A stretch of DNA of 64,000 bases from Pocillopora damicornis (taxonomy: Eukaryota): positions 1 to 64,000 of the forward strand of contig NW_020846275.1 in the NCBI RefSeq assembly GCF_003704095.1. The letters are read 5' to 3'. A program made the position numbers and the translations under genes. The notes beneath the pieces are model-generated. The model worked only from the letters and a program-made list of their open reading frames with translations, had not been told where the DNA came from and ran no database searches. This document shows positions 15,179 to 63,223 of this stretch, in pieces; the first letter of the stretch is position 1, and the number at the start of each line of letters is the position of its first letter.

Positions 15179-19056
<3,878 letters not shown>

Positions 19057-21271: not shown

Positions 21272-25387
<4,116 letters not shown>

Positions 25388-33400: not shown

Positions 33401-35551
33401 CAATTTATATCGAGCCTGTGCTTAACAAAAGTCTGGTGACGCATCGAGGCTGGATCAGACCAGGAAGACCTCATCTGATGTATAGAAAAGCTGTCTTAGA
33501 AGAAGAAGATCCACATAACTTGGAGTTTGACGAGTTTCAAACGGAGGACTACCCTACAGGACTGAAAGGTTTGTCGACAGATAAATGCCCCATTCTATAT
33601 TTTTGAATAATAAATAAATTAATTCCTCTTGACAAATAAGCTGTAAACACTAGTCTTATTTTTTTGACTAGCATATAAAAGAATAATAGAACTATTGCAT
33701 CGAACCTATACAAAGAGTTCTTTGCAGAAGCTTTTTGATTGAACTTTGTGAAACGAAAATCATACTTTTGAGAACTAGAAATCACAACAAAGCAAAATAT
33801 TTCAAGGAACCATTGAGAATTCAAAGCAAAAACATTCAATTGTTTGAAGCTCGGTAAAGAGGTATAGATCAAGTCGTCATTGGTGTGATTTAACGTGAGT
33901 TTTCCAGACCGATCACGGCGCGTACTGAGGAAGAAAATTAGAAATTGCTCTCTGGATTCTTAAACAGATATAGCCTTTGAAGCAGATAATCAGATAATCG
34001 GACAAATGTTATGTCAGTGCAGGGGCGTTAGCGCGAGTATTTAAAAAAAGTCTCAGGTGAGGAGTGGCGCGCTATAGTGCGTCTCTACAACTCGCATTCC
34101 ACATACTGGGTTATCTGAGCGCCTCAGCAGCAAAATATCTATCAAAAGTTACTCCATTTAGGACCGATAGGTTAAACACGACAGTTTCTTCGTGGTCCAC
34201 GTCCCCAAAATCTTTATGTAACCATTTCTTGAAATAAGAGCAGCTGTTGTTTTGGTCAGAACTATTCTTGCTAATCGTTTTTGGCGCCCAGACGACGTGT
34301 ATTTAACATTCCAACGTAAAAAAGGGGAGTGATAAAAATAAATAAAGATAAAAAACAAACAAACGAATGGCGATTATCCCAGATTACGACTTTTCAAAGA
34401 AGGAAAAAAATTTTTTTTTTCATCACATTTCAAAAGGAGACTATTGAGGCGATGATAATTCTCTTAATTGAATAATCGACTTCGTTGAGTTGTGGAGTGC
34501 CCCAGTTGTTAAAAAATTTACACTTTCTCCTAAAGCAAAGCAGGCTGGATGATACGCATGACAGAATCATGACAGAATCATTTCCGTAAACTAGCGCAGA
34601 TATTCCGGTGTGCTGAAGTTGATGCAGTCTAAAGTATGCTGGCCCGTTAATAGACCAGAAAAGATAGAACAGAACTTTTTAGAAAGGACAACATATGTTG
34701 ATTGTTTTTTCTTTATTTGATCTACACATGTAAAGCTATTTAACCAAAGTCAAATTGTCCGTATTATGGTCGGCGGATAATTCGAGATAATTCGTTTGAG
34801 TCAATCACCCGACGACAAAAAGTTGAACTTTTGCTTTCAGTCATAGCTTGCATTATAAACACGGGTTTTAGACGGCAAGTGAAGTATAATCCGCTTCCAA
34901 TTCGATTTGTCGAGGAACTTTAGTTTGTCGTCAATTCACAGGGTGTTACCGTCTTGCCGACAGATCCGGATAAACTCCTCATCAGACTGATGACTAGCCA
35001 TTAATTATCTAAATCTTAACATATCACACAAGCATTATTTCCGATGTTTCCGATAAGAAGGCGGAAATGTTGATGCGGTGCGTTTATCACAAAGCTTTCA
35101 AATAGAAATGATCGGCACTCTCTTTACCGTCGCTATGTTCATCATAGAACGAGCCATTAGTATAGGAATTATAATCCTCTTAAAGGAGGAATAAGCTCCG
35201 AAGTCTGGGTAATTTTTTCATAGTTAAATCAAATAAATTCTATTTTGACCCACCGATGACATCCAAATAAAGAAAGAATCGTTGTAGGCAAACTGCAATT
35301 GCAGTAATGGTAGAAAATTAAAGAAGCATTCGGAAAAGAAACCCAGGCGGCGATGGGATGCTAACCTGCGCCTGCGCCGACACTACTTGGTTCTTCATCT
35401 TCACTATTAAAAATATGTACAGAAATTTACTTGTTTCTGTGTTCTGAAATGCTCGAGGGTTATTGTATTCAAATGCGCAAAATTCGACTCTGGACGCCAC
35501 CAGTTTGAAAACAATTCAATTAGATAAACGGAGAGTGAATGTTCCCGACGC

Positions 35552-35600
<49 letters not shown>

Positions 35601-38600
35601 GTATTTACGCGAGTTTGAGTTTGACCATTTCGCCAGTTCTTGTTCCATATTGTACGTGTAAGTTGTAAAATTCGGAAGTTGCCGAGAATTTGAAATAGGC
35701 CAGTTTCTATTGTGGTATTTGCTAACTTTTGGGGAGAAGCTATGAAATCAAAACAATGCCCTGTGAAATGTCCTCACGTAGATGGTTTTCCTTTGAAAAA
35801 GAACAGACCATTCATTACTGAGTTGTAAATACATGTTTAGTGCAGTTTGTTAATCAATGGTTGGCTTGTTGAGCCGCCTCGCCGTAAGCCTATGAATTCC
35901 CCACCCCGCCTCCCCGAATCAATAGCATTAAAATCATCATCATCATCATCATCATCAACTTTGGGCCGAGTGATTAACGATTTAAATTTAAACTCTCGTA
36001 TCTTTTGTCTAGCAGTCTAGACTGGACAAAATAACTAGTCTCTTTAAAAAAATAGCTTTGGCTAGTCTAGTTTTAGGACATTTCTTTTGTTACGTATTTT
36101 CCTCATGTATTAATTGCAGATATGCTGTTGTTGTGTGCTGAAGATTGTTGCTATGGCATGTTTGTGCAGTAATGACAGCATTCCACCCTCACCCTCTCCG
36201 CCGTTCCCCCTCCCCCCCCCACCTAAACCTTTCTACCTTTCTTTCAAACAGGGGTCGAGTCTGTTCTTAATCCTTGTTTTCAGTTGTTCGAAAGGTTCTT
36301 TCCTGGGTTAAGGAGTTTTTTACCACCACAAAAACCGACTCTCTATAATCTGATTTGAAGTGGAGACAGTGAATGCGCAACAAAAATTCCATTTTTTTTC
36401 ACTTGTTTTATTTTGCTTTGGTGATTGCGTCACTTGAATTAAACAAGTGTTTAGTGCTTTACAGCTTCACTTTCTAGTGATTAAACTAAGTATGTCAAAC
36501 TCCACTGGAGCATAATTAACAGGGAAATTCATTCAGGGATGTTTCACTGATGACCTCCACACATATTACAACATTTTCCTTGTAGCGGACGGAGAACCGA
36601 ATGAAGCCGAAGCAGCTCGCTCTTTAAGCGCTTACCTTCAAATAATAAACCGCTCAGGCCGAGCGATCAAGGTGATCTTGATATACATTCATCATTCTTG
36701 AAAATGGTTGAGAAGGCTGCCTTTAGTTAAAAGTGGCTTATGAGACCACTCCATTCATGAAGAGTACTCCATTATCAATAAGATTTCCACCTAGATCGAT
36801 CAATTCTGAAATCGTCTCCTATAATCTAAAAGAATGAAAAAGAAAAAAGGGTAAAACCATCAAAAGATAATTAATCCTTTGTGCATTTACCGGTCTGGTA
36901 GGTCTATACCGGAAAATGGTAAACGCCTCTGATATCAAATGTAAATTGTCGTCACCCATGATTTTACTCGGTATATGTAACCTCTTTATATTCTTCACAT
37001 TTTCATAAGGGGGCTCGCTTAATATTTCATTTGACGTTCCCCTTGTAACGCTCACTTCAATAACTATTGTTTAATGGTCAGTTAATTTACTTATCCTTCG
37101 CTCTGACGAAGGGGAAACTTTCGAAATTTCAGCTTTAGAAACTCTTTTAAGTGGCCATTTTACATTATCAACTCTGTTTATAAAAACCAAATTGTCTTGT
37201 AATAACTCTCACCGACGCAGCACCACAGTTTTTGTAGAAATTTAACATATTTAGTTCACTTGTATGTCAATCGATCAAGGAAGTAAGCAATCGGCCGTGA
37301 CCAAATAAACAACGGTTGACGGGGCATTTTTTAAAATATGGTATATTTTCATTGATGACAGATGTATTATGTCTTCGAGGGAAAAGAAAAATACTTTCGA
37401 ATCTTAACAAAAGGAGCAACACTGGAAATAGATACTTATACGGTTCATAAATGGATAGCTAAAGACTACGACACCGGCAAAGCGCTCTTTCTCAATAGGC
37501 AAAAGACTTACACACCACCAACAGGCACCAATGCTAAAAAACCAGCCAATGTTTACGTCACTATACCACGTGAGTTACACACCAAGTTTATCTGTCTCGA
37601 CAAGGACATATGTGGAACACAGCAGTCAAACGTAGGGCATGCACGAGCTCGAGGGTATCAGTTTTGCGCGCCTGCTCGCCAATTTCCCGCGCGAAATTTC
37701 CAAGGAAAAGATATAAAAATCGCAAAACAAGAGTTAGAAATCTGGAAAAGCAAAGAAAATAGGGAGAAGGAAAACTCGAGACTTATTGAACACAAAACTT
37801 ATTCAAGTAAGCGCTTCAGGTTAATTTACCGTTCTGTTTTGAGCCTCACCAAAAAAGTTAAACACTTCTCAAACACCATGATTTACTGGCTTGTGTGGTT
37901 GTTTGCAACTTTTGTGAGACAGCGTGATTTCGACTGCATGAAAGCACGCCACCCAGTCGGTACAATGTTCGTACATTTTCAAATGTTTGACCGTTGTGTT
38001 CATCTAAAGGGGTTGGATTTATTCGCTTTGCTAGATTTATTGTTTAAGAGAGATAAGATAAGTCGTGAGAAATCATTGGCCCATTTCTGCCCGTCCAGAT
38101 TATCCTTGTTTTCACAGAGGAACACATGTAGGTGTTGTTCTAAAATGAATTTTAGTCTATAAAAATAGGAGGATTAGCCTCTTAGGACTGGTATTTAGCC
38201 CTTGATCCTCCATTAACCTTTAAATCCTTGCTGTGAACCCATCCAAGTCCATCGATGGAATCTACACACCTGTCATTCTTTCCACATGACGCAAGCATTT
38301 TGTTATTTTTTAGCTGGACTTAAGCTTCCCGACCCCTTGGGTCCCGCTCAGCCAAACAGCCACATAACATTCATCAACAAATCAAATCGCTTTGTGAAGG
38401 TGAGGCGTCCTTTGCGTCTTGTCGATATTATAAATTAAAGGAACAGGAGTATATTTTCCTTATATTCAGTCAGTTCTCCTAAGAAAAAATAACGCATTGT
38501 GAAACAGGTAAGTGAGTTATGAGAATAAAGTAGATAAACAACTGAGGGGTGTCTTATGTTGTCATCTAATCTTGAGCCAAGCTTCTGCTTTACTGGAAGC

Positions 38601-41600
38601 ATAATAAGCAGGCTCGAGAACAGACAGCGTTTGAAGCGTTTAGTGTTAAATCCTCTAATAATTGGCTAAGAACTCGTTCGAAAATTTTGACCATCAGTAT
38701 TCAGGTTTCCATAGTTGACCATCGAAGAACCAGGAATGTTCATTGGAGGTTCTTCTTTTTGCTCCCAAACCAAAAAGAATGCAAAATTCTGCCCTGTGTT
38801 GCACTACACTGTTTCTTCATTCATTTCTTTGAATCTGTTTGTTTTCGGTTTCCCTTATGTTATGCGCAAGTTCTGCAAGATCTCAGACATTTTTCTTATA
38901 TATGATTTTCCTCTGTAATGTACGTAGCGATGGAGGCTGCCTGTACTTGTGCCTTTTGTTTGATCGTGACCGCTGCATGATAAGTAATCCTCGCGGAAGA
39001 GTCTCTTGACCTTGCCTAATTTTCTTTCCTTTCCGTCTCTCGAAGATTTACTACATCGAGGATGGCGAGACGAGATTTTTTAGCAATCTTTCTCCTGCAG
39101 AGGAAATGCATGTGAATACTTTCACCTCTCACCGGTGGTTTGCCAAGGACCTGGATACAGGCAAATCTTTCCTTGTGAACGGAGAAAAACAGTACATCCC
39201 GCGGGAATCGCATATTGATCGTCGGATACATGTTGCCATTACCGTGCCAAGTTCGTGATATTTTTGCCGTAAAAAAATTTATTATGTTTTAAGTGACCCA
39301 AAGTTGTAGTTGATGATAATAACAATGATGAGGATATTGATGCTGATGATGATAACGATACTGCTGCTGCTGCTGTTGATGATGATGATGATGATGAGCA
39401 GCTGCTTCATTACGTTTCCCTAAAATATTAAGATTTTTTCGAGATTTTTTGAAAGTGCCTCTCACTTTCATCTAAGCGTTATACACTTACACCAGAAAGC
39501 CAGCTCTAAGAAGCACGGACTGTACTCACAACTTGGTGCTCTCATGTTAAGAGAATATCAAATATTTTCAGCGTACGTACATGCTTACTGACCCTACTGC
39601 TTTGTCAAGTAAATAAATTGCGGTTTTCATTGGTAAACGATCTCCATTGGTTTCACAGGTACAATCTCCCTGCCCGATATGAAGTTCCCTGAAATGGTCA
39701 AAACCCAACCAAAATACATAGAAGTAATGGCAGCCGCTGATAGTTCTGTGGTGAAGTTTCATGGCAAAGAGAAAGCAGAGAAATATGTCTTAACTTTGAT
39801 GAACATAGTAAGTAAATTCCTTCATATCTTTTCTATTACCTTTTTACGGCGGCAAATTTATATTATCAACTTAGTTGATAAGACAAAATTATGTTGCTAT
39901 ACCCCACAGATAGAGCACCGAAGTTTCTTTAAAAACTGATCCCCTTATACCAAAGGAGGACTGTTACCGACAGTAGTGACTACCATTTCTACAAACTGAG
40001 AGGAAGTCACTATCAGAGAGTCAAGACTTGACTTGACTAGAGTACCTTGACTGATGATAACTCCCGCTCAGGATGTCGAACGTCAGTTGCCGACAAAAGC
40101 CCATTTCAGAACTGCTCTCACCCAAAGACACCCATCACGATCAAGTGAAGCTAATTAAGCTGGTCCTTTTGTGGGGACTCTCTTTTTGCATCAGGGAGGT
40201 GGATGTAAAAGAATATCTCCATAGTGATATAACTAGCCTGTACCTGTCCTTTTTCAATGTTTCCTTTGTCACAGGTCTCCAGAATATTTCAGCACAAGTC
40301 AATTGGTGCTCCTATCTATTTTGTGGTCGTTAAACTTGTTCTTCTGGAAAGAGACCCGGTAAGACACGATTCCTAATAATTTATAGAGTGTGAAGTTTTC
40401 TTAAATTACGTTCACTTGGACAGGATGGCACGGAAAAAAGCTTGATTTTGCTTAACTTTCCCGCTCTAATCGTTGAATCACGTTTTCACGTTTGTTTGTA
40501 AATTGTTTCCAGTGCTGCCCCTTCAATAATTTCATCATTCAGTATTGCGAATGAAGGAAAGTATTCGTGCATATCCGGATATGGACGACGCGATTCATAT
40601 GGTAAATACGTAGTAAGCTGCCATGAGAATGAACAGAACATAAGGATTAGGGCAAGAGTGTTTTTTGCTCAAAGGTTCAGATCTCACCCTAGAAATAACG
40701 GTTCCAGCTGATTTTCATACGCTCGTATTCTGCACGTCCGATGCGCAAAGAAGGGACCGTAGTTTAACCCTTTACCCACCAACATCAGTATGCATATTCT
40801 CCATACTGTTCTCTATACATTTCCAAAGAGGCTAACAGGGAGAATTTGTGTAACAGTCAAGAGCTTCTTTAGTTGATAATCATCTCTTCTCTTCTCATAA
40901 CTTTCATGTTTGATTCAGGGATGATTAAGTAAGGAGAAACAAGATACTAGTCACTCTTGGGGGCTAAAGGGTTAAGCAATCAGGACGGCAACGCTTAGGA
41001 AAACGTCGATTAAAAAAATTAATCTGTGTTTTTCTTCTAAGAATGTCTAGAATGAGTTGATGCGATTACCGTCTTAAACGGCGTCAGACCTCATCTTCAG
41101 CATAAGATTTGTGAGCAACGTTCAGTTCTAAATGGAAACATAATAATTAGCCGTCAGTGCCGCGCAACTTTTGGTGATTTTACGTTGTTGTTCTGCAGAG
41201 GACGGCTAGGAAATGTACAAAATTTTAAAACGCACATGCCGTTGTGTGCTTATAAAATATTCTGTTTTGCCACTTTCTCGTTGCCGTCGCTATCGTGGTT
41301 TGTTTAAGTCTCTGCTTAGACGTTTTGATCGAGTTTGCAGCGTGGGCTGTGTAAAGTTAAAACATATTGCAATTATTTGTTGTATCTTAGAGAGAAATCA
41401 AAATTACCGGCAAACCGATGGCAAGCTTATCAAGTGTTTGTTACTGGGGCCATAAGACGAGGAAAGGCTTTGACAAAGTCGACAAAGATTTTTACGATCA
41501 GACCGTGTTTCTTACAAGGTAACAGTCTTTCACTTGTACCATATCATATGTATATTGGGTAATCTGAGTGAACGTAATCTGCGAAATGTTACTTGCGTCT

Positions 41601-44600
41601 GTCTTTAAGGGCATCGGTAGTCAGGGGCGACGCCTACAAAGAAGCAAACTCCGATCCCAGTTGAATAAAATACATATACGTTACTGTCACATTTGTGTCA
41701 CCATTAAAGGGACAACTCTCTTTGGAGGACTTCTGGCGGATATTTTCATTTATTCTTACAAGATCGTCGAGGCTTTCCGAACACTTCGGAAAGTGTCACT
41801 CATATGTCACTACACTGCTTTCGAATGTGTATCTTATTATTGGGTGCGAACCGTATCTTTAGCAGGAACTCTTAATTGCTTATCGTGTATATCGCTTAAC
41901 TAATGTGCTTTTGTTTTGTATCTTTTATCTTTTCACAGAAAAGACTTTGGACCTTCAGGTACTAGACTTAATCGAAGCAGTTTCTTTCGACTGGTCTGTT
42001 GAGGGATGCGAACTTGAATGTGCATTCATCAGTATAGCTTTCATTGTCTTTCGTCATTAAAAACTGAATTCGAGCTAATTAGACCAATTTTCATCTTTGA
42101 TCTATTTTTTTTATTCGGAAGGCTTGTATCAGTCTGAGGTTTTCCTGTCAGTTGAAATTAATTATTCGATTTTGCTATGTTGACGAGAATATTATTATGA
42201 GAATCGTAAACGATGAAGGAAAACTGGAAAGATGTTCATAAGGTCTCCAGATGTGCCGGTTTCAAGTCTGTCATTGCCGCTGCTCGGTAGTGTAAAGGGT
42301 CTGACGCATGCAAAGCATTTATTATTGTTCTCTACCAGTGTTTAAATCATTCCATATCCAAACGTTTCAATAAGTACGAGTTTTAAACCAATTGAATTGC
42401 CGATCTCCAGGTTACGCCCCAGTTCACGGCATGTGTTATCGAGTACGAAGCTGCACTCTGAACGAAGAAGACGGATTCACTTCATCGTTTATCATCGCTC
42501 ATGAGACAGGACATACGTAAGTTGTAGCTCATAGCGCATAGATTATTGTGCATTTTGCAACATGCGCTGAATCTTCGTTACGCATTAAGCGTTGCGCATG
42601 TTATACAGTTTAAAGAGCTTGGTGTTTGCGTATATATATATTGCCCGTGAAGTTTCAGATCCCATAAACCTACTTTTCTAGTTACATAAACCAAAAAAAA
42701 ACACGATACTTTCTTATTATAAACAGACTAGGAATGGAACATGATGGAGTGAAGAACAACTGTTCTAATGACGTCATCAAAGGCAGTATCATGGCGCCTC
42801 TGGTGCGCTCCCGGTTTGACCGCTTTTACTGGTCTTCCTGTAGTCGGCGGGATCTGATTACGAAACTCAGGTACGTCACAGGATTATGTAATGCCATTTA
42901 TGATTAACTGGTGGGTTGATTTGTCGATTATTCCCAAAAATGAAAATATTTTATGCCTTATCATCTTACCTCGCATCAAATTACCCGTTAGCGTTTTACA
43001 CCATTTTATCTTAGTTCTCCTCCTCATAAAGAAAATTAGATTGTGTTTTTATAATTCTTAGTCACCTTAAAATTTTTTTCACTTTTTTTTCTTGGTGTTT
43101 TTTTTTTCGTAGAGCTCTTTGGTGTATAGATGACGTACCATTTAGAAATGAAATACCATACTTGAAGAAGCTTCCAGGCCAGATTTACTCTATTGATGAA
43201 CAATGTCAGCGTGAATTTGGTAAAAATACCAGATTCTGTAGCGGGGTTAGTTCAACTAGTTCATTTTGTGCGATAGAAGATATCGAAGGAACCGTAGGTC
43301 CATGATAAAACTCTCTTGGGTCTTAATGAGTGTCTTATGTGAGGTGATGGTTGTTTAGTTCGTGCATCTTGAAAAATAGGCGTATATTTGAGTTGTTTTT
43401 ATGTACGATCCCTGCCACGTTTTTTCTTATTCGTCTTTTTTTTTAGAGCTGTTTTCAATTGAGCGTCGAAAGTAATCCATGATAACTTTGGTTTTGCTCA
43501 ACTTCACTTGACGATTGTCTAGAAAACTGAGGCCACCCTCTCGATCAATCAAATTCAAAACTAAAATCAATCCTGATTTGAACAATCTCTTGTTTTCCTG
43601 CCTTTCATGCATTATTCCCGTTATTTCTTGGTGCTCTAATTGACTAATCAAGACCTTCGCTCAGACTGATTGAGGTTACATTGGTTTTGGTTTTTGGAAA
43701 CTCAGTGAAAACTGCTCTATACTTGTTCCCTTTTACTTTATTCTTGCAAATTGGGCGTCTTTGCACAGAACTATTGTTCTGACACTTTTTATGCTAGTTT
43801 ACATTTCAGAAACGACTGAAGTTACGGTGATGTAGCTCGGTTATAGTCCTGTAGTTGCTCTCCTTCGCAAATTGTAATTTGGATTTTTTTTCGCTTCAAC
43901 TTGGCAGATGAAGCGCGATCCGTGTAAAGAGTTATGGTGCAGCCGTTTGTCCTTTTCAACTTATAACAACCGCTTTTGTCAAACAAGACGTACAGCGGCC
44001 TTGGAAGGAACAAAATGCGGAGTTGATAAAGTGAGATATGAATTACGTTTTTCTGCTTGATTCTGATATATATTATATACAGCAAAAATTATACCGGTCA
44101 TTAGCTGCACTTGAAATAGGGAGGACTCTTGACACACATTCAAGAAAAATTCCTGCTTTATCAGTCTCTAATAAGCCCTTTAGCAGTTGCAAGAACCTAT
44201 ACGGAAGATTGATCAAATTGTCAGACTGCGTTTTGCCGATAAATAAGACCTTATCATGTCTCGACGTAATGCTTTTACTCTACCAGTTGTGCGCGTATAA
44301 TCCTTCATAATACTTACTGTTGTAACGGTTTTCTTCTACGCCAAAGAAAGGTCCGGTTGATGTTAAAATTTTATTCTAAAGCATAAATGTCACATGCATT
44401 TCCAACGAACTCAGCGTTCTTTCAACAGCTCTTACGTTGTCTCAATTAGAAGGCGATGATTTGGTACATATCTAAGTCAACCCAAGACAGGACTCTGTTT
44501 CTATATGTCATTTAAATAGCGACTGTCTGAAGAACAACTGAATGTTTCTATTCCCCAGTGGTGTCGATTGGGAGAATGCGTCCCGGTGGATGATGATGAA

Positions 44601-47600
44601 GATATCAGCATTCCTCTGCCTCGACCAAAAGTTAAACCGGTTCATGGTGGCTGGAGTGAATGGAGTGGACTCAGTGAATGTTCAAAACCGTGCGGTGTAG
44701 GGATCCGTTACCAAACAAGGAAGTGCAATAATCCAGTGTAAGTGTTGTCACAGTTTAAAGAATCGAGTCAATATTTAGCACCGTATGTTAGATTGAGAGG
44801 ATGTAACGGATTTCATTCACACAGTTAAGGTAAATGTGCACGATATGTCTTTTACGCACCCTACATTCTGAATTTCTAGAGAGTGTCGTTCATCTCTGGA
44901 ACAAAACCAGCCAACGGTCAAGATTGGCTGTTATTTTGAATATCTCTAACCTTTAAACAGAATATAAGCTTTTGCTGGTGTATTATGTGGTTATGAGTGC
45001 GGGTTTCGAGTTTGCCTTTATCGTTAGCTTTCAATTTTGGAGGTTAAGTACGTAACGGCCATACTTGAAGGGCGTGGTAAGTTCGGCCTGATGCAATTCT
45101 GCCAGTTTTCTGAACAGAATTAATAGCGGTAATTGAACTAAGTGCAATTTGGTCTGAAATAATGCTCGTAATTTCAAAATTAAATCTCCATTTGGTATGA
45201 CTCCTTATGTTTTTCTATAACTTTATATCATAAATTGAATTTTTGATTATCAGTATTTACAATGTAACTATTGTATTGTAGCCTTTTACTCAGAAGAAGA
45301 ATAATGATGTAGAAAATTAATTTATTTTGCTTGTAGGCCTCAAAACCTCGGGAGACCTTGTGAGGGGGAAGATGCTAAATTTGAACTTTGTAACACTGAG
45401 GTACGTTTTAATAACGTCTGTTGCGTCATCAATAGCATCGTAAATGCTATAATAACCAACCAATGACTGCTTACCGGCTAAAGATAGCAGCATGAATAAG
45501 AGCCAACGTATGCAAGTGACTTACATCTACGAACTTGAGGACTTTTAAAGTCTACCATAATGGCTTGTTTATCTTTTTCACCAGGACTGCCCTGGTCAGC
45601 TGTTAACGTTCGAGGCGTCAAGAAATGAACAGTGCAAGAGACGCGCACCTTTGATTTTACCAGAAATTGCCGGCAACTGGGCAGCACATGATATCTTTAA
45701 AGGTTAGATCTCACTTTGTTCAGGTTTTGTTATTGTTGTTGTCATAAGTTTTCCTGCATGCTTGCTTTCTGTTTTCCTTGTTTTTGTTCTTTTCTTGCGG
45801 AGTTCATTCTTCAAGAAGTTAAATTTTATCTTTAAATTCCTGACTTGCCTGCTGATATCAAGACCCTTTGGAAGTATCTTTTTATGTTTTTAACTCATAT
45901 TCTAAACAATTTCGCAAACAAAAAGGTGGAAGACATGTGGAATGAATGATAATATATATCGCGGGAAAAATGTATTAGTCTTGGTATGACCTGCTCTATG
46001 ATTAAACAGCCACGGCCACGGAAAAAAGGATGAATACTCTTGTAATTTTCAGCGCTTCTTACCGAGTACCATAGTTTTGGTTGCGTTTAATTCTTCTTTC
46101 AGAAATTTGCTCAATGATAAGGACTCCATTTCCCTGATGCCTCATGCTGTCGAATTAAAGAGTAAATTCATCAAACCTTATCTTTCCTGGCTAATGCTGC
46201 TTTTTCATTTCTCTTAAAATCACTTAGCGAGCATTGACTGTGACTTTGAGACTGGTCTGTGTGGCTGGACAAATGATGCTCATGATAATTATGACTGGAA
46301 GCACAACAAGGGTCGCACCCCGACCGCTGGTACAGGACCCTCCGCAGATCACACTAAAGGACGAGATGGTGAGGAAGGAAAAAACCCAGCATTTGGTTAT
46401 TACTGTAATCCTTACTTCTTTCCCTTTTCTATTCATTGCTATTTGGTAGTAAGGTAATTTGGTATCATCAACTGAGTTGATAACGTAAATTGGCCACCGT
46501 AAAGAGTTCCAAAGCGGACGTTTCGAGCATTAGCCCCTCTCAGAGGGAATAACGAAGAGCTAACGCTCTAAACGTTAGCTTTGAAACTCTCTACGGTGGC
46601 CAATTTACGTTATCAATTCAGTTGATAATACCAAATTACTGTGTTATACTCTCCCACCGACGCAGCAGTACAGTTTCTTTAGAAACTTACCCCTTCATTG
46701 TTATTGTGTAGTGTTAAGTTCTGCAAGCTGGTTAAAATGAAGACAATTTTGGCTCTTAGAAGTTAGTTGTTCTTCTGCATCCAATATTAGCTTCGTTTTC
46801 ATTAACTCTTTAATCCCCGAGGGTGACTAGAATCTTATTTCTCACTAAGGTATCATTACTGAATCCAACATAAAGGCTTATGAGAATCAAGGGAACGATC
46901 ACAAACTTGGACAGCTCTTGATTTTTTATGTCATAGATATGATTTTTTTTTTAAATTGAGGTATATTTTTTTAAAATATGGCGTAAATTTGCCTGGAGTA
47001 AGATCGGAATCAAATAAGAACAAGAACACTGAGCAGTTTTCTCATCAACAGGGTTATGTGACTGTTAACATATGTTTCTTCGTACTTTGTGTGTAGGCCA
47101 TTACGTATTTTTGGAGACGTCTCGGCCACTTAACCCTCGAGACAAGGCCCGTTTGATCAGTCCGTATATAGGACTTAAGGTTGCATGTCTAAAGTTCTGG
47201 TATCATTCGTTTGGTGACAATGCACATATGGGAGAGCTTCAACTTATCATCAAAAGCGATACAGTGAGTATAATTCTGAATGCACAAATGACTTACATGT
47301 GGTGATGAAATCAAATAATCCTTGCAGTTAAATCGCGTCAATTTGAAGTCCTTAATGTTTTTTTTTTCTGAACTCTTATGACCAGTTTGAGTTCAGAAGG
47401 TGTGTGTAAATAACGTAACAGCAACTTTTCGTCAAGGAAGAAAAGTTCCTCAACCCGATCCGAATCAATGTCAGTTTAGGGTGGTCAAGCGAAAGAAAAA
47501 AAAAACTTGTGTACCGTTCATAGGTTTCTTATTTAGTCTCGAGCCTAGAAACATGACATGTGGCTGCTTTTTTTTTTCAATCTGTTCTTTTCATGTTTTT

Positions 47601-50600
47601 CTTCTCTGACTCTTTTCAGAAAGAGATCCGGTGCCAAAAGAAGCAAAATTTTTGACATACTGTGCGGTTCTTTTCTTGATATTCTACGATAAACTTTTAT
47701 TCAAGCATTTCCTCATTTTGCAGGGCGAAAAAGTTGTCTGGGCGGTTAACAGGAATAGAGGAGACAATTGGGTATGGAGGCACGTCACGATATTCAGCAA
47801 GAGGCCATATAGGGTAAGTAGCGCTATAGGTTGTGCAGTCTGAGAGGTTTAACCCTCAAACATCCAAACATCAGTATGTGTATTCTCCATATTTTCTTTA
47901 TACATTTCCTAAGTTGCTGACATGGAGAATTTGTTTACTGATCAAAAGCTTCTTTCGTTGGTGATTATTTCCTTTATTCTCGTGACCACAATGTGTGATT
48001 CAGGGCTGATATTGTAGGGAGAAATAAGATGCTAGTCACTCTTAGAGCTTAAAGGGTTAAAGCATACTATGATTAGGAATGAGGTCATATCTTCATTTTT
48101 TAATTAAATATTAACTTACTTTTCTTCAACTGACTTTGAAGGTAACTTTTCACGTCTGATCATAGGCAACCACGCTATGTTTTTCTTATTCTTTTGCGCC
48201 TTTCGTTCCCAAGAACGAAAGCGACGTAGAAAGGAGTGACAAAGATGCATCCAAACCATAAGCCGGTCTCTTTAATTTCCCAAATCAATATTAGCAACGC
48301 ATGGCAGTCTTCGGCTTATCTCAGCACCTAAGCAATTCGGACAATCGCAAGGCTCTAGAAAAAAAAAAACGACAGATGTCAACGAGAGAACTTCGGAACC
48401 TATTATTAGCTAAGCGTGGAGCATGTAATCATGAACGGAGGCATAAAAGAGTTTACTCGCTGCCATTAATCAAGACTAACAGATTTAAGAACTCATTTAT
48501 TATGCGCAATGCAGTCAGGGCTACTTGATAGTCCAAATTTCATTATTATATTTGCCGTATATATATATATAGATTATCCATTATTTTTTTAAAACATGTA
48601 ATTCAGCCTCACGACTGCCAGATATTATTTTAATAAACGACTTGTCTCTCAAAAAAAATTATCTTTCAAACCGGTCTTCTTAATCCCTGCAGTATCTACA
48701 AACGTTTTTCATTCTACTAATTCGTTCTTGTTTTTATGTTACCAATTTTCCATCAATAGAGTGGCTCCATTTTTCTGCATATAAAACACACACAACCCAC
48801 AATTCCTCCATTCGCTCTGGAAACGCTCGAAACGGCAGCTTTAAAAACTCTTTACGGTGGTTAACTTAGATCATTCATACATTTGATAAACCCAAATTAT
48901 CTTGTAATATCCCCGCTGAAGTAGCAACACAGTATCTTTAGAAACTACTCCCTTTCTTGATTAGCGCATAGTCTCTTCCACACCGCTCTACACACATGTT
49001 CAGCCTCGTCACATCCAACGCCCTCTTTTCCTGAGAATAAGATAGCTGCGCAGACTCGGAAGTTGCTTGTTAGACATGAAGATGACAGATTTTCGAGCTC
49101 ATCAAGCCTCATCATTTTACCCATCATTTCATTGTTGCAGATCGTATTCCAAGGAGTGAGAGGTGACGGATACCTCAGTGATTTCGCTTTGGATGACATC
49201 TCACTTGAAAACAACCCATGTGGCCTGGGAATGATGAGATTCACAACAATTAACAACAGTATGTTCCTCTTCAGTAAAATCCACCCTCTAAGTAACATTA
49301 GAAGTAAATCTAATCGTTTCTGTTTTAACTGAATTGGGTGACTATGAAATGTTGCATGGTAACAATCTCAGTAAAACTTTTCTCTTTTTATTCGTCTGAC
49401 ATTTGTAGATAGACTGATATTAAGGGTGTTTCGACCACACAGTACATCATTTGCTAACGACCACATCTCTACAAATACCACCTCACTACAATAGCTACAT
49501 TTATTGTCCCGGCCGAAGGTCCATACATACACACCTCTCTACGACGACCACCTCTCCAGAAAGACATAGGCCTTTAGGCGCGTTCGAGCTGCGAATTACC
49601 AGAATATAACAGTCAATTAGTAACCGACAGTCAGGCGAAACGTGCGACGACTCACTCACTCTTGACGTTTGTACGTGGTAAAAACATCAGTGACTCACTC
49701 GGCTGCGCCTTAAGTGCCACCTTTTTGCTCTTACCACATGTTGACGCCATCTGTGATCTATTACTGAAAAGACTCACGACAACATAAAATCTATTTTTTA
49801 TCACCTTTCTCTGACAGCACTTTTTTTTTTCTTTTCTTAAGGTGTCCGTTGTAAGAAGGTTCGACTTTGAGTTAAGATTAGTCTTGTTTTCTCTACAGGA
49901 CTCGACCTCAATCCTTGTCAACAGTTCTGTGAGGCAACTGAGAACGGCAAAAGGGTTGATATCGTACCACTGGACGTCGAAAACGGAACCAAATGTAACG
50001 ACGATCTGACATCGTTTGATGTCTGTATTCAGAGTAAATGTCAGGTAAGTACCGTTTCGATCAGCGTAAGTGCTGTTAACCTTTAATTCCCGTGAGTGAT
50101 CAACACAGAATTTCTCCTTACATTATCACAACAATATCAAGCAGACAAGTGATGAGAACGAAAAAAAATATCAATCAGGGGATTGTTAGGTGATGCAATG
50201 CCAAATTATTAGAAATAATATCATAGGAATTGTTTGGCAGACAATGAGGAGAATTACTATTTAGATCATAGGATTGAAAGGGTTACGGTAAATAACTTCG
50301 TCATTCTCTTATTTATCCTTTTTGGGAGATACAGTCGCCCAATGATAAGCGAATTTAACTAATTGCGGATAAAACTTTTCCCGATCCACAGAAAGTCGGA
50401 TGTGATGGCATCGTTGGATCAAATAAAACTCTGGACAATTGTGGCGTTTGTGGCGGCGACGGTCACTTATGCACACCAAGTGAAGGATCCATCTCTTTGT
50501 TACCTAAAGAAGGTATTCTATCTTGCAATCGAATAAGGACCTTTCGTTCTTTAAAGAGTAGCGAAAAAAAATTAGTTCTGGTGGAAATCTTGCGGTAATG

Positions 50601-53600
50601 ATGTGAACTGTTGTTCAATAGAGGTTGACAAGAGTAATTTAATTGCGACGCAGAGTAACACTCGAAATGTTAGCTTTGTTATGATTCTCTGGTTTAGTGA
50701 TCATCAATCAACCGATAGCTTTACTTGCGTGCCACTAGTCCGAGGACACAGCAACGCAGTTTCTTCAGAAAATAAGGACTTTTGGTCATCCATAAAGGCT
50801 GGTTTTGGTTACCTTCATTTCAACTTACGTACCCAGTTGTTACCTATTTCTGCGTGTTATGTCTTCTAAAAGTTATCACGTGTGTCTTCTATTGTAACTG
50901 TTTTGTTTTTAACATCTCAGATCTTCAGACATTACTCGAGTGTCCGGTGGGGTCAACCAACATTATGTTGGAGGACACATCCCCCAATTTCTTAGGTTAG
51001 TATTTTGCATGTTGTGGTTCATATTAGGCAAACATTATCTCTAAATAAATAACGGCTTATGGTTAATCCTCCAATTTCAAAGCAGTCATAAATAAAAGTT
51101 CCACGATCTTATAAACCCAACACTTTACCGTGAAAGAAAACTTTCTGTATTTAAGGTAATCTTCGCATGTCCATACAAGTGACTCATTAAACGAGAGTTG
51201 ATTCTCGAAGCGTTAGGTACACACGTAAAAGGAAGGATAACATGTAGATTGAGTCTTTTGTATGAAAACCCGCCTCTGTCAGGAAGCTCGGTACAAAGTA
51301 GTGGGCGTCCTTATGATTTTTTCGCTTATAATGGTTGCATTTCGTAACGATGGTGAGGGGTATTTTTCGTGTAAAACGTTGAAAAGAATTGCAACAAACT
51401 ATCACAGCATGATTGATTGATCAACAGTTCTAGAAGCTATGGGTGCAGAGAAACAGTATTTTAATGGGGCCGAGGTGAAATCCGTCTCCTCAGTGTACAA
51501 ATTTGCTGGCGCTAAGTTTATTTATACACGACATGGAAACAAAGAGAGTCTCAATGCGCTGGGGCCTCTCACGGATAGGATCAAAGTGAAGGTTAGTCTA
51601 TAAATTCAAACAGGTATCAAAACATTTGAACGTGACAAAATACGTTTGAATTGCTCAACCATGTCAACATTGGTTATTATTAAGACGCATCCCACAGGCA
51701 CCAATTAGGGAATACAAAAATAAAGTTAGTATCTGTGGAAGAAGTGAAAATGGAGTTACGTAGTTTCTAAGAGGGGTGTCCGAAAATTTGTCTGATTTTA
51801 AATGATATTGTGGGCCTGATTACATGAGCCGGGTTGGCCTAGTTTTGCCAGGTTTTGACGAGATCTCGTCACTTTTGTCTAACGTAACAAAAATCAACTT
51901 CGTGATTACATGAAATTATGACGATGATTACACAAAAAAATGAACCGTCAGCCGTAGAATGGCCAAAATTTAAACGGTTAACCATCACCCTATTAAGACC
52001 CTCCACTTATCGCTTACGAACAAGAAGTATGTGGTTACTTTATACATATACTCTTAATCAAATACAACGCTTATAGTTTACCCTCCACCTGTGATGTAAC
52101 GTATCAAAGTAATAAATTCACGAGCCTCAGGATGACAAGGAACCTTTCTTTTGGAACGTCTCTTAACAAGGGATGTTAACTTCTGTCCCAGCAAGAATAA
52201 TGTTCCTGTAACTCCTTTACCTGTAATCCACACTCAAGGAACACGTCTGTGCAGGGAACACTTTCTCTAGTCCCAAGGGTATCCACCTTACAGAGGATCC
52301 TACTGTAGCGAGAACTTGATAATTCTTAGTATGCAAGATAAGATTCAAATATCCATTTACCGTGCAGTTACCCAGGAGAGTTTCCTAAGTTGTTCAAATT
52401 AGTACTCGTTCTTTCCCCGGCTACAACTGTTCAATTAAATTCATTCAGAAAGAAATGCTCTGTTGTTGCAGGTAAAGATTAGTGAGTCACCAGCGCCTGT
52501 AACTCTGCGTTATTCGCTTAACAAACCAAACAGCAATGAAAGTGATTTCTATTGGTCTCATCTCAAATGGTCTGAATGTTCCAGAACCTGCGGAGAAGGT
52601 TTGTAAATTAACAATAATAAATTAACTTTCCGGGTTCCACTTCAAGGAAAGAGAATGCTATTTAGGTTGTTAATTTTAGCGAATGCAAAGAATTTAAGAG
52701 AATTTTAAACGTGAGCTGAGAGTTGACAACGAAATCTGTTTTTTGCTAAATAGAGGCAGGAGTTAGTGCATTTCCTTGCTTGTGAAAATGATGACTCTTC
52801 AGTTTGGTAAAAGTGTAACGCTTAAGCGCGCATCGATCGGTTAGTCGAGCTGCACTTGCCAATTCAAATTACCTACCTTTTCTGCTCTAACTCAAAATTC
52901 AATATCTTCTCTATTTTTAAGGAATACAAACACGCATATACAGATGCCTCAAAAGAGAAGACGACAATGAAGTTTCAGAAAAAAACTGCTTTACCGTCAA
53001 TAAACCCGAACCTTTGACCAGACCTTGCAATTTAACAGCATGTGAGAGGTATGAAAGCAGCTATTTATCTTGCCTCAGGATTCATTTTCTAATTAAGGTT
53101 AATGTTAATGTTTTTCCTTGTCCTATATCTGTAACCACTGCAACACAAATTTATCAAAACTGTACTGATAGAAGTGAACTTTTTGCGGAAAGATTTTTCA
53201 GTTCTTGTGAAACAAAGGCTATTCTGCCTTTAAGCCGTACGCATAAAATTCCGCCGAAGTGATTCGCGTTGTGGTATCATAAAGTCTTGAAATGATATTT
53301 TGCTATGGTCAGCAAACATCAAAGAGGCAGGAATAAATTATAAAGGTCTATGATAATAAATGATGTTAAATATTGACATGTATTGGTAATAACTTAGTTA
53401 CAAGATTTTGGCCAAGATTTTGCGATGTACAAGCTGTCTTGTAAGTCCAGGAACCCTTTAGGCCTGACCATCAGTATGTATATCCTCCATACTGTCCTCT
53501 TAACATTTTCTTTGGTACTGTCGCTTGGTCACGATCAAGAGCTTCTTCAATTACCGATCATATTCCCTATTCTCATTACCTTCACGTTTGATTCATCTGT

Positions 53601-56416
53601 AATACTTGAAGGAGAAATTAGATGGGTATGATCACTTCTGTGGTTGAGAATCAGCTCTACAATTAACTTGTGTGATTCAGGTATGAATGGAGGGTCTCTG
53701 AGTGGAGCAACTGTTCAAAGCCATGTGATCGTGGAAAGCAAAACCGTACTGCAGAATGCAAAGGTGTCTTGGGTAAAATGCTGGTTAACTCCTCACTTTG
53801 TACAGCGGATAAACCTGAAATCGAACAAATATGTAACGATGATTCGTGTCCTGCAAAGTGGGTTACGGGAAACTGGTCAGAGGTGGGTGATTACGTTTGT
53901 TACATAGTTAACAATTATGAAAGATGCTGCCTCAGATGTTCAGTCAGTGACAACTTCTTTTTCGGAAAGCTACACTGTATTGAAAACTGCCCCAGAGGAT
54001 ACGTATTTTGGTGCTTGAATAGACTAACTGTTCATTCTAGTACTAAGTGATTTGATTTTTGTTTCGGTCCAAAGTGTTCACGAACGTGTGGGAGAAGTTA
54101 CCAGTCTCGCTCAGTAGAGTGCCGCGATATACTGGGGGCCTTGTCTTTGAATTGTCCAAGGGAAACAAAAGAAGGCGTTATTAGGAGATGTAGGAAAGAG
54201 CCATGTGCAGGTGAAGGTGAGTATTCAGGGTGCATGTCACGCATCTTAGAGGAGTTAGAGCATCTCTAAAAATTGAACTTAGATATTTCGAGTTCAACAT
54301 ATGGCTGTTCTATACTCGTTCCATTTCAGTTAAGAATATTCTTCCCTAATTTGTGCCTCGCTGGCAAAACCGACTAACTTCTTCAAAGGAGCGGAAAATA
54401 CTGCTAGGAGCAACCACATACGCTGTACTAATATGCTATGTTTTTTTGCCCTCATTTCTTTCAGATTTTGTCAACATTTCATGTACTTTCGAGCAAGGTC
54501 TTTGCGGTTGGGAGAATGTACGTGGATCTAGTCTAGATCAATTTGATTGGACTCTGTGGAACGGCAGTACACCAAGTAGGAAGACAGGCCCCTCCGTAGA
54601 TCACACTCATGGGACATCCAAAGGCGAGTCCCTCAACTCTTGGTACTGTATTTTAGATGTATCTTTAGTATTCCGTAAGCGACTTTTGGTAATGAACTTT
54701 CTGAGGAATTTAGTAACGATTTCGGAGATATGTTTTATCATGCAACTACACCAGTAATGTTGGATACTGCAACGCGCTCTCAATAACATTGAGACAGACA
54801 GAGTTAGACAGACCATGCCAGCTAACAGGCTAACTGATGAATAATTAAGCAGCTCTGAGGCTGGCTAGTTGACTGACTGACTGACTGACTACTTGATTGA
54901 TTTCTGCAGGTTTTTACGTTTACATAGAGGCATCAGATCCACAGAAACGAAATTATCGCGCCAGGTTAGCAAGTCCAATGGTGAAGGCTAAAAGAGTGTG
55001 TATTGACTTCTGGTATCATATGTACGGGGCAAATATGGGCTCGCTCCGGGTAATCCACAGGGACCCAAAATCCAGAAGAGAACGGCGATTATGGTATAAG
55101 TCGAAAAACCAACTCAATGAATGGCATAATGAGCGACTTCTCATCTCATCTTACTTGCCTTATCAGGTAAAATGCAATGCCTTGTGTGGCTCATGTGAGT
55201 TTAAGAGTTTTCGTGAGGAGAATAGTAAGCTCTTTCTAGACGCTTATTTACAAAAATTAAGGTGCCACCGTAGCAAGACGAACAGTTCTGACCAGTTCTT
55301 TAAAATTCTGCTGTGCAGGAAAAAAAAAGAAAAACTAACTATCGTGCCTAGTCAATCACAAAGGAATTTCCTTTAGTTGGGATTCTTATTATCTCTCTCT
55401 AATTCTTCTGGCTAGTAAATGACACATGATTCTCTTTACTACCAGAAAGAGCGTAAAAACTAACACGATTTGGGCGTAAACACCAAGTCTACTGTAGTAC
55501 CTGGTCATTGATAAGGTGACATACCGTTGCATTGACATATTCTTTGTTTTTATTCTTAGATTATATTTGAGGCAGTTCGAGGTAGAGGATTTTCCAGTGA
55601 CGTAGCACTAGACGATATTAAAGTGTCGAGCGGTAGCTGTCCTTCCAAAAATACCAAAACACGTGGGTTTGTACAATGATCTGTTACAAAGTCGTTGCTA
55701 TTGCGCTCTCTTGCGCAGATCATCATAGCTTTCAGAATAAGCTCTAATTACATAAATTAATTGCATCTAATTAAATAAGCTTTGGATGGATGTGACATGC
55801 ATTGTTTACGGTATAACAAAGAAATTTACTCTGAGTTGATTCACTTTTCCTATTATCCTTAAGTAATTTTTGAAGAATTAGCTTGAACCGTTTTATGTCT
55901 GGGGCACTCACTCGCCTGGCTTCATTCATTATTTCGGCTTCCCCACACGCATAACGTAATATTCACAAATTTCTTTCTCTACCTGAATTTTTTCCTTTTT
56001 TTAATTTTCATTTTCCCTATTTTTAAAATATGAAGAGTGCTCTTTTTCAGTTACACGAAGTCTCTTTTTCGCCGGTCAACTTAACTTCTAGGAGCAGTCA
56101 AGTCTCGGATTGTCAATAGATAAATGAAATTTCAACTGGTCACTCTTTCTAAAACGTCTCTAATCAAATCAACGCAGTTGCGTGATTCGCACTAGCGTGA
56201 CTAGTTTCAAGAACGTAACGCAAGTAGAGGTTGTAACTTTCTTCAGTTACTTAACGTTGTCTATACGTATTTCCCATTTCAGCTCAAAATCGGTGTATCG
56301 GTGACCGGTCCAAATACTGCAAAACTGCACTGCGTCTTAACTGGTGTTCTTCGAGGAAATGGGGGCCAATTTGCTGTAAGACTTGCGAACTGTATGCACA
56401 GAGCGGATCGAAATGA
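27492..56416 (+). CDS. ADAMTS: ADAMTS2/3/14-like secreted metalloprotease with extra domains: signal-prodomain-2xVHL-beta-like-M12B-disintegrin-TSP1-Cys-rich(MAM insert)-spacer-3xTSP1-MAM-PLAC; 36 exons, ~1590 aa
   Basis: Exons 27492-27578, 27720-27756, 31778-31929, 32415-32609, 33373-33568, 36586-36671, 37362-37569, 38314-38399, 39046-39250, 39659-39807, 40275-40358, 41391-41518, 41939-41958, 42411-42516, 42727-42870, 43113-43245, 43908-44030, 44559-44737, 45337-45400, 45585-45702, 46228-46368, 47097-47263, 47724-47813, 49141-49258, 49899-50044, 50392-50512, 50921-50995, 51428-51591, 52472-52598, 52922-53048, 53681-53882, 54075-54216, 54465-54623, 54910-55166, 55560-55662, 56283-56416 are phase-compatible (4773 nt). 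Active site [60 protein letters not shown] matches the ADAMTS2/3/14 clade. [18 protein letters not shown]. Confidence 0.9.
37092..37245 (+). repeat. Penelope-derived terminal repeat with a minimal hammerhead-ribozyme-like core
   Basis: gct-CTGACGA-aggggaaactttc-GAAA-tttc-agc followed by the family tail (ggccattttacattatcaactc..accgacgcagcaccacagttt). Confidence 0.65.
40764..40975. mobile_element. piggyBac-like MITE (TTAA-flanked, CCCT..AGGG termini), 212 bp
   Basis: TTAACCCTTTA...TAAAGGGTTAA. An equal-length homologous copy lies at 47849-48060, with partial or related copies near 9467-9604, 46802-46925, 50076-50285, 53452-53640 and 58290-58422. Confidence 0.75.
46454..46690. repeat. Inverted pair of the same Penelope terminal repeat (~85-bp-arm hairpin)
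   Basis: gtaatttggtatcatcaactgagttgataacgtaaattggccaccgta.. is the near reverse complement of ..tacggtggccaatttacgttatcaattcagttgataataccaaattac. Confidence 0.8.
47849..48060. mobile_element. piggyBac-like MITE, second full copy
   Basis: TTAACCCT..aacatcagtatg..attctccat..gagaatttgt..ctagtcactctt..AAAGGGTTAA; internal sequence shared with 40764-40975. Confidence 0.75.
48210..48945 (+). mobile_element. Second Penelope remnant of the same family in an ADAMTS intron, interrupted by a LINE 3' end
   Basis: gtagaaaggagtgacaaagatgcatccaaacc..gcatggcagt..aaaattatctttcaaac..taaaacacacacaacccacaa..gaaact aligns by eye with 60837-61384. Confidence 0.75.
48370..48650 (+). mobile_element. 5'-truncated non-LTR (L2/CR1-group-like) retrotransposon 3' end nested in the Penelope remnant
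   Basis: Translates [16 protein letters not shown], a typical RT-ORF C-terminus, then a 3'UTR with aataaa. Flanked on both sides by A-tracts and absent from the homologous site in the 60.9-kb copy. Confidence 0.6.
54624..54909 (+). other. Non-canonical GC-AG intron within the second MAM domain
   Basis: AAAG|GCGAGT donor gives DHTHGTSKG|FYVYIEAS, the same phase-1 position as the GT donor in MAM1 (DHTKGRDG|HYVFLETS). Confidence 0.75.
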
Positions 56417-58841: not shown

Positions 58842-60145
58842 TTAAGATGAAGGTGTGGTTGCTGCAGCAGGTTGAGGCTTCTTTCTCTTCAGCACAAGTG
58901 GTCCCACATTGTCTCCTGTTTCTTTGTTGTGCTTGGTATGTGAGCCATCACACCTTGGGAACTTAAGATTAGAAAAAAGTGTGAGAGTTAGATTGGATTC
59001 ATTTCTCAGATGAAAAATAAAATTTCTGACACAGACCTTGCACACTACATACTCTATAATCTCAATAATAGCTTGGTTGCACATCACCAACTGTAAGTCA
59101 GCATCTCTACTGGTGTACTATTCTCGAGTGACCAGCTCACAAATACAGAACATTATGGGAAAAAAGAGTAACTAATGATTGTATGTTTAGATCATCTGAG
59201 TAAGGGTAGTCTTGAGAATAACTGTTGCCACATAAAGTGAGTTACATTTGGACAACCTGATTGGCAGTCTTCCAGGGCTATTAAGATGATCTTCTATCAG
59301 GTTTTCAATATGTCAATCCCTTCCACTGACAACAGTTCCTCAACAGATAACCCTTACTATGACAACCATACTGTATGATCCACAAATGTAGGAAACAAAC
59401 TTAAAATGGGGCTCAATTTTTCAGGGATTGGTTTACCTCCAATCTCTCATTTCAGTAACTTAAACATCAGACTCCTCCATGGATTCGTTGAGTATGACAC
59501 ACTGAGAGAAAAAAAATTCGTCCGAAGCGAGTATAATGCTCTAACTAGTGGATAGCACCCTCCCTTTGTTGATTCACACTGGGTATTATGTAATACTCTG
59601 TCTCCAACTTTTTGATATAGTGTCGTTACCGAACCCACCGCAGAAGGAAAAATGCTGTTAATGACAGCGAATCAATATAAAAAAGCTTGCAATCTCCCTA
59701 ACGAATGCCACATTAATACCAAAAGAGTCTGCAAGGTCAAATCAATTTCTGAAGCCTAATTTACCTACTCAACTTGTTTTGTTTAAAGCCTGTTGGCTGA
59801 TTTTACCTTTTTCGATTTCCAACAACGACAGAAAGCATGATAAGCTGCCTTCTCTGCTAAATCTTCAATCTGAATTGTATCAGCAACTTTCTCCTTGTCC
59901 TTTTGCTGTGTTTTGTTGACCCAGTCTTGATCTGGGGTCTTCTTCCCAGTGGGCTTCGATGCTGACCGCCGAGTAAACTGCTTAATTACGAGATAAATGA
60001 ACAACGATAGAGTGAGTAAAAGCGGTGCAAGCTGCCGCCATTCCTTTACCGAGAGCTTTAAAAATCCGCCGAAAGTAGAAGGAACCGGCAGAGATCGAAG
60101 ATAGTTTGGGAGCTGCACTTTGATTACACGCGAAACGGCTTCCAT
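58842..60145 (-). CDS. CISD2: CDGSH iron-sulfur (NEET) protein, CISD2/NAF-1-like, copy A, 2 exons, ~152 aa
   Basis: Exons 60145-59807 and 58961-58842. N-terminus [13 protein letters not shown], a TM helix, and the 3Cys-1His motif CRCWKSKK|FPRCDGSH, then ETGDNVGPL. Confidence 0.92.
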
Positions 60146-63067: not shown

Positions 63068-63223
63068 TTCGGTTTCAAGAATCACGTGAACGACGTACCG
63101 GGTAATTGTTTTGTTGTTCTTTTGTACTCTTTGTTTCTTCGCATCGTTAGCGGCTAGTCAGCAGCTTCTGAAAGTAACGTCTAACACGTCATGTTTGACG
63201 ATGTTTAAAAGCAGATTTTCATC
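63068..63223. promoter_or_regulatory. Compact bidirectional promoter region between CISD-B and SLC9B
   Basis: Only 156 bp separate the divergent ATGs; contains TCACGTGA (63082-63089) and is CpG-rich relative to its flanks. Confidence 0.7.

Follow-up and report, generated by a model that had tools for sequence, protein, structure and literature searches.

The stretch of DNA analysed here, below called the window, comprises the first 64,000 nucleotides (nt) of contig NW_020846275.1 of the stony coral Pocillopora damicornis (assembly GCF_003704095.1). According to our analysis, its forward strand carries, at 27492..56416, a whole ADAMTS2/3/14-like gene in which a complete MAM domain, here MAM1, interrupts the cysteine-rich domain. 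The gene was delimited by mapping the exons of the protein P0001 on the window, by Pfam and by the named Pocillopora records found in the same 90% cluster. P0001, the sole protein returned by a search with exon 49899-50044, is a near-identical relative of 1590 amino acids encoded on one 5464-nt contig, and the records of P. damicornis, P. verrucosa and P. meandrina in its cluster are named ADAMTS2-, 3- or 6-like. From its N-terminus, hydrophobic when read by eye, P0001 consists of a leader, a prodomain with an early polybasic site, two VHL-beta domains, the M12B protease, a disintegrin-like domain, a TSP1 repeat, the cysteine-rich domain split by MAM1, the spacer, three TSP1 repeats, a second MAM domain (MAM2) and a PLAC-like end. 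The prodomain and catalytic domain (Pfam PF01562 and PF01421) are those of an ADAMTS protease; the zinc motif HExxHxxGxxHD is intact, with intron 42517-42726 interrupting it, and the Met-turn is present. The Pfam matches keep the ADAMTS order of disintegrin-like domain, TSP1, cysteine-rich domain, spacer and more TSP1, the cysteine-rich domain being divided by MAM1.

A MAM domain within the cysteine-rich domain

The six exons concerned are the following.

45585..45702, + strand: N-terminal half of the cysteine-rich CA subdomain, with a phase-1 donor at its end (alignment to ADAMTS13, exon map)
46228..46368, + strand: MAM1 exon 1, phase 1-1 (Pfam MAM 1-40; RNA joint)
47097..47263, + strand: MAM1 exon 2, phase 1-0 (Pfam MAM 43-96; RNA)
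47724..47813, + strand: MAM1 exon 3, phase 0-0 (Pfam MAM 102-129, weak alone; RNA)
49141..49258, + strand: MAM1 exon 4 and return linker, phase 0-1 (Pfam MAM 131-157; RNA)
49899..50044, + strand: C-terminal half of the CA subdomain (alignment to ADAMTS13, exon map)

All introns between them are GT-AG, with phases 1,1,0,0,1, and the exons form a single open frame, which a skip of all four MAM exons (45702>49899) would keep. The MAM exons tile the Pfam profile in order (E 1.8e-9, 6.2e-9, 0.057 and 3.5e-4), and in spliced P0001 residues 838-993 cover profile positions 1-157 of 158. MAM1 contains only four cysteines; profile match, cysteine count and predicted beta-sandwich fold are those of a MAM domain. 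An earlier note, made from the sequence alone, had described a complete four-exon MAM domain interrupting the cysteine-rich domain at a phase-1 intron, and its coordinates, motifs and phases are all borne out.

The splicing of these exons was checked in assembled contigs from four runs of four studies, one of which, X11, is merely presumed to be RNA. The joints 45702>46228, 47263>47724, 47813>49141 and 49258>49899 were each found in all four runs, the shorter side of the last being only 29 letters in X5 and X11, while 46368>47097 is listed in two of the four, X12 having in addition a loose end that reads into the next exon. A single 2266-nt contig of X11 contains the cysteine-rich exon 45585-45702 together with the whole set of MAM exons. 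The earlier note had raised the possibility of 45702>49899 skipping; no such joint is listed in the four runs, where assembled contigs drop rare forms and cannot show absence, and MAM1 is retained in each of the 15 members listed for the cluster, which numbers 32. A fifth run, X9, gave none of the joints above, probably because of low cover. Since the boundary joints occur in every one of the four runs, no skip joint is listed and the listed cluster members retain the domain, inclusion of MAM1 looks constitutive. A gene-model artefact, or a separate MAM gene, was considered and ruled out by the RNA joints together with the encoding of P0001 on a single contig. Short high-copy interspersed repeats at 46470-46700, 47860-48050, 48770-48950 and 50090-50290, in the MAM introns, attract many unrelated RNA contigs, and 46489-46544 and 46575-46640 look like an inverted repeat pair.

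For the exact insertion point, P0001 was aligned via chicken ADAMTS3 to the ADAMTS13 chain of structure 6QIG. Trp826 and Cys1012 of P0001 match ADAMTS13 Trp470 and Cys483, and MAM1 lies between them, in the V-loop; the span from Trp to Cys is 13 residues in ADAMTS13 and 186 in P0001. Likewise, Cys811, Cys1012 and Cys1016 match Cys450, Cys483 and Cys487. The Cys450-Cys487 disulfide described for ADAMTS13 in the accessible part of PMC6706451 maps to Cys811-Cys1016, both of which are invariant in 26/26 aligned rows. Because this pair, bonded in ADAMTS13, lies on either side of MAM1, the insertion falls inside the CA subdomain, and a disulfide of the host domain is predicted to bridge it. An AlphaFold model of P0001 residues 795-1198 (pLDDT 80.9, pTM 0.72; loops of low confidence at positions 64-85 of the model) aligns over its residues 3-401 with ADAMTS13 439-682 (Z 12.9, root mean square deviation [rmsd] 4.5, 205 aligned) and over its residues 37-202 with the neuropilin-1 MAM domain (5L73; Z 17.1, rmsd 2.5, 149 aligned). 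The model predicts that the host cysteine-rich domain refolds around the insert and that MAM1 folds independently. Flanking cysteines and model thus agree on a true domain-within-domain insertion rather than one at a domain boundary.

That the insertion affects a substrate-exosite region, as also proposed in the note, is upheld by its mapping to the ADAMTS13 V-loop, the known exosite 2. In the text accessible from PMC4885070, Gly471-Val474 at the base of this loop form a hydrophobic pocket for von Willebrand factor (VWF), deletion of the loop or mutation of His476-Gln478 reduces activity, and the loop is variable and mobile. The predicted fold of the coral cysteine-rich domain and spacer resembles that of ADAMTS13 (3GHM, 3GHN, 3VN4 and 6QIG; Z 12.3-13.0), a protease with a different substrate which, unlike the coral gene, adds foreign (CUB) domains only at its C-terminus.

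Family placement, distribution and the VHL-beta domains

The remaining features of the gene are as follows.

36586..37569, + strand: VHL-beta domain 1, exons 36586-36671 and 37362-37569 (Pfam PF01847 E 3.5e-5, second exon)
38314..39250, + strand: VHL-beta domain 2, exons 38314-38399 and 39046-39250 (Pfam E 2e-6; phmmer against human pVHL)
39659..43245, + strand: exons of the M12B catalytic domain (Pfam, motif reading, exon map)
44559..45400, + strand: end of the disintegrin-like domain and central TSP1 repeat (Pfam)
50392..52598, + strand: end of the cysteine-rich region and spacer, the last exon reaching into TSP1-2 (Pfam PF19236, PF05986)
52472..54216, + strand: three C-terminal TSP1 repeats (Pfam PF19030, 3 stretches)
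54465..55662, + strand: MAM2, three exons, phase 1-1 module (Pfam, splice-site reading)
56285..56416, + strand: last exon, PLAC-like, with the stop codon (Pfam PLAC 18.2 bits, below the cut-off of 26.4; exon map)

The ADAMTS2/3/14 membership, the two VHL-beta domains and MAM2 had all been missed in the earlier note. In an IQ-TREE analysis (LG+G4) of the catalytic and disintegrin-like region, with 45 rows chosen from 102 and 286 columns, the 13 MAM-bearing rows cluster with 18 rows of ADAMTS2/3/14 type, a grouping that is separated from 14 other ADAMTS at 100/100 and within which the 18 are united at 91/99. Over the same region the coral protein is 46-49% identical to the listed chordate members, and like ADAMTS2/3/14, in which a PLAC domain follows (PMC4349717, accessible part), it has three TSP1 repeats towards the C-terminus; its own end is PLAC-like at a score below the Pfam cut-off, and MAM2 sits in between. 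Tree and domain order together point to the gene as the cnidarian counterpart of ADAMTS2/3/14. It differs from them in the MAM domain inside the cysteine-rich domain and in the second one after the last TSP1; further, in cnidarian genes the catalytic domain is preceded by one or two VHL-beta domains, and the stony-coral proteins lack a furin-type site adjoining the catalytic domain. None of the bilaterian ADAMTS2/3/14 members examined gave a MAM or VHL match. In none of 17 proteins do the 35 residues that follow the VHL domain contain the furin-type motif R-x-K/R-R; in 5 of the 17, none of them from stony corals or anemones, the motif lies before that domain. An incomplete Nematostella ADAMTS2/3/14-like sequence was reported by Brunet et al., MAM not being mentioned in the accessible part of that paper (PMC4349717).

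The homologue set consisted of 394 proteins, taken from the best 120 or 150 matches of each search, of which 330 have both flanks detectable. A MAM domain lies between the flanks in 31 of the 330 (15 from the Pocillopora cluster and 16 others), and apart from six unnamed proteins every carrier is cnidarian: Oculina, Porites, Acropora, Actinostola, Exaiptasia, Dendronephthya, Paramuricea, Xenia and two Hydractinia paralogues. The same insertion thus spans stony corals, anemones, octocorals and the hydrozoan Hydractinia. In P0247 from Actinia, outside the 330, a MAM domain follows the N-terminal half and the protein is truncated. The claim that vertebrate ADAMTS proteins have no MAM domain stood, with no PF00629 match in any listed vertebrate ADAMTS. 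In the wider comparison that had been proposed, the named bilaterian relatives examined (vertebrates, amphioxus, Priapulus, Lingula, Gordionus, echinoderms and others) have no insertion, and no sponge or placozoan orthologue was identified among the named matches. All of the 31 except three X4 isoforms have a VHL-like match. Among five other stony-coral proteins, identity is 73-78% for MAM1 and 62-66% for the host half-domain. Hydractinia P0306 keeps MAM1 without MAM2. A second type of insertion at this site was considered for P0374 (Actinostola), whose long span is a 12-residue tandem repeat, and was rejected as a gene-model artefact; five further proteins with spans of 190-215 at the site gave no MAM match. 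P0375 (Xenia), P0340 and P0352 are divergent short paralogues which retain the VHL-like domain and MAM1; the third histidine of the zinc motif is missing from the first, which may be inactive, and the other two stop before the spacer and may be incomplete.

Regarding the origin of the insertion, 12 further ADAMTS-type loci of the coral genome (L002 and 11 of 14 other search matches) were compared, their acceptors being read from the sequence rather than from RNA. At all 12 loci the best acceptor shortly ahead of the cysteine at which the domain resumes is in phase 1, and where both flanking exons are visible (8 of the 12) they lie 167-666 nt apart with no MAM match between them. Exon shuffling typically leaves a phase 1-1 module in a phase-1 intron shared by the whole family, as is the case here, and by this route MAM1 would have entered a pre-existing intron in an early cnidarian. 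Two intron positions and their phases are common to both MAM domains; the first internal donor of MAM2 is a GC at 54623. As the 44% identity between MAM1 and MAM2 is no higher than the MAM-to-MAM identity among cnidarian orthologues, MAM2 is no more than a candidate origin of MAM1. Clusters of ADAMTS-type loci in the genome lie at G000:C1390:176178-258405, C2282:69798-71882 and C3577:823285-849381; the two loci on C2282 are near-identical, inverted and about 2 kb apart, either a recent duplication or an assembly artefact.

The two VHL-beta domains, each a two-exon module, lie between the prodomain and the catalytic domain (Pfam PF01847, 57.8 bits, 2 stretches) and match human pVHL chains weakly in phmmer searches (E 0.003-0.016). 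Octocorals and hydrozoans have one each, and splicing reduces the number in the coral, RefSeq isoform X3 skipping VHL-beta 1 and X4 skipping both, so that two, one or no copies result. We compared 25 domains at the positions of Trp88, Tyr98, Ser111, His115 and Trp117, which we take to form the hydroxyproline pocket of pVHL. Trp117 is kept in 25/25, His115 in 20/25 and Ser111, as Thr or Ser, in 23/25, whereas the Trp88 position is Tyr or Phe in 22/25 and the Tyr98 position is Phe in 22/25; the conserved residues may be merely structural. A single-sequence fold of one VHL exon was uninformative (pLDDT 44). Unlike pVHL, the coral domains belong to a probably secreted protein and are without the Elongin-binding alpha domain, and since no furin-type site lies on their catalytic side, the VHL domain would remain on the mature enzyme. 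Elsewhere in the genome, VHL-beta matches occur at C3839:33520-33756 (L003), a probable canonical VHL, and in two tandem exons at G000:C2604:65151-67096 (L004, L007), which may represent the family from which the ADAMTS domains were derived. No prior description of VHL-beta in an ADAMTS was found in the literature searched, which misses most subscription journals.

The rest of the window holds genes of other kinds. An intronless 381-codon frame at 496-1638 (+) with filamin and NHL repeats resembles a TRIM-NHL protein over the C-terminal half of the latter, and the regions at about 3700-12700 (-) and 16000-25200 (-) contain a Sirtuin-1-like gene (SIR2, DUF592) and a ubiquitin-conjugating enzyme gene. 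A small CDGSH-motif gene, presumably resembling CISD1/2, occurs twice in tandem at 58845-63157 (-), the last exons of both copies having no Pfam match at E 0.001. A hydrophobic 193-codon frame at 63209-63787 (+), cut by the window end and open for 190 codons on the opposite strand too, presumably resembles a sodium/proton exchanger (SLC9B-like).

Possible functions of the inserted domain

The reading that we favour, and to which we assign an even chance, is that the gene encodes the cnidarian counterpart of the procollagen N-proteinases with a whole MAM domain in its V-loop, likely a folded docking module holding the enzyme on its matrix substrate. MAM1 would take the place of the short exosite loop and bind substrate or matrix; the substrate would most likely be the fibrillar procollagen of the mesoglea, whose N-propeptides the enzyme would cut. 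General matrix targeting by MAM1 would be plausible. Nematostella has fibrillar collagens, and NvADAMTS-4, an ADAMTS3-like member of a Cnidaria-specific orthogroup, is present in its mesoglea at a steady level in larva, polyp and adult (PMC12549020, accessible part); this protein (NV2t009914001.1) is a candidate orthologue of the coral gene.

Several points weigh against this reading or its evolutionary setting. The use of the V-loop as an exosite comes from ADAMTS13 and VWF, with no comparable evidence seen for ADAMTS2/3/14, and one study reported 11 residues of the ADAMTS13 subdomain, most of them charged, to be without major effect (PMC4885070, accessible part). An insert might simply be tolerated most easily in a variable, mobile loop. 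The structural match to ADAMTS13, at rmsd 4.5, gives no more than the ends of the aligned range, and the alignment behind the AlphaFold model included uninserted ADAMTS rows. Because stony corals and anemones have no furin-type site just before the VHL or catalytic domain, activation may differ from that of the known enzymes. Finally, the 13 MAM-bearing rows form one clade in only 50% of bootstrap trees, so that a cnidarian gain is not separated from an earlier gain followed by bilaterian loss; an earlier FastTree tree split these rows, while the IQ-TREE test does not reject a single clade (p-AU 0.51), and a single gain in the cnidarian stem would be the simplest reading.

Alternatively, MAM1 might be a self-association or cell-surface adhesion module which clusters or localises the enzyme without touching the substrate, a possibility that we deem real but on balance doubtful. 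The closest solved folds include the MAM domains of meprin alpha/beta and RPTP-mu/kappa (Z 16-17), and two MAM domains per chain would permit head-to-tail contacts. MAM domains mediate oligomerisation in meprins and RPTP-mu. However, with only four cysteines MAM1 has none to spare for a covalent link of the meprin type, and the fold itself is uninformative on function since all MAM folds score alike. The combination of a zinc metalloprotease with an accessory MAM domain is shared with the meprins and the horseshoe-crab LAST-MAM astacin (MAM fold Z 14-17); unlike the coral protein, these belong to the astacin family, and their MAM domain is appended after the catalytic domain and not nested in another domain. 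The position of MAM1 at the exosite loop, on the side that faces the substrate in ADAMTS13 (PMC6706451, accessible part), fits substrate docking better.

The same position would allow MAM1 to act as an autoinhibitory or gating cap, displaced by substrate, MAM2 or a partner, which we regard as improbable. A 160-residue domain at the exosite would obstruct the substrate path used in ADAMTS13, the CUB-spacer closure of that enzyme offers a loose parallel (PMC6706451, accessible part), and with the usual second furin-type site absent from stony corals and anemones another control of latency is conceivable. The gating argument is nevertheless purely positional, and MAM1 is also found, or is to be expected, in those proteins that retain a furin-type site ahead of the VHL domain. 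There is still less to recommend a tolerated passenger without specific function: the loop is permissive and a 1-1 module in a phase-1 intron causes no frameshift, yet MAM1 is retained from hydrozoans to stony corals, is more conserved than the host half-domain and looks constitutive despite the in-frame skip available.

Anemones build no mineral skeleton, and MAM-containing proteins occur in coral skeletal proteomes. The earlier note had linked MAM1 to the skeletal organic matrix of corals; that it directs the protease to this matrix in stony corals, among which it is well conserved, is very improbable, since the same insertion in Exaiptasia, Actinostola, Actinia, octocorals and Hydractinia predates the scleractinian skeleton and is not restricted to calcifiers, and no literature linking that matrix, MAM and ADAMTS was found in a search with most subscription journals outside its coverage. 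The graft would likely steer the enzyme to soft-tissue matrix instead, a secondary role in calcifying tissue being possible.

An extension of the docking reading takes in the VHL-beta domains. Prolyl-hydroxylated collagen IV is bound by pVHL according to a review (PMC13560369, accessible part), and cnidarians could have rebuilt their procollagen N-proteinase by acquiring two recognition modules, MAM1 replacing the exosite-2 loop and VHL-beta, next to the active site, reading collagen hydroxyproline outside the cell. We hold this to be a long shot. If true, collagen trimming would depend on prolyl hydroxylation, and alternative splicing would adjust it through the number of VHL domains included, be it two, one or none.

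No prior description of a MAM domain inside an ADAMTS was found in the literature searched, where most subscription journals are uncovered and where figures in PMC5446238 (cnidarian thrombospondin repeat architectures) or PMC12549020 may draw the protein. The architecture is already visible in the automatic RefSeq annotation; what is new is its recognition, not the sequence. In the accessible part of PMC6706451 the ADAMTS core from protease to spacer is treated as fixed, with variation confined to the C-terminal domains, and the coral gene departs from this core in two places, across the cnidarian groups sampled. A V-loop able to carry a whole domain supports the view of this loop as a specificity site and as a natural graft point for engineering, and the gene offers a testable handle on the processing of mesoglea collagen.

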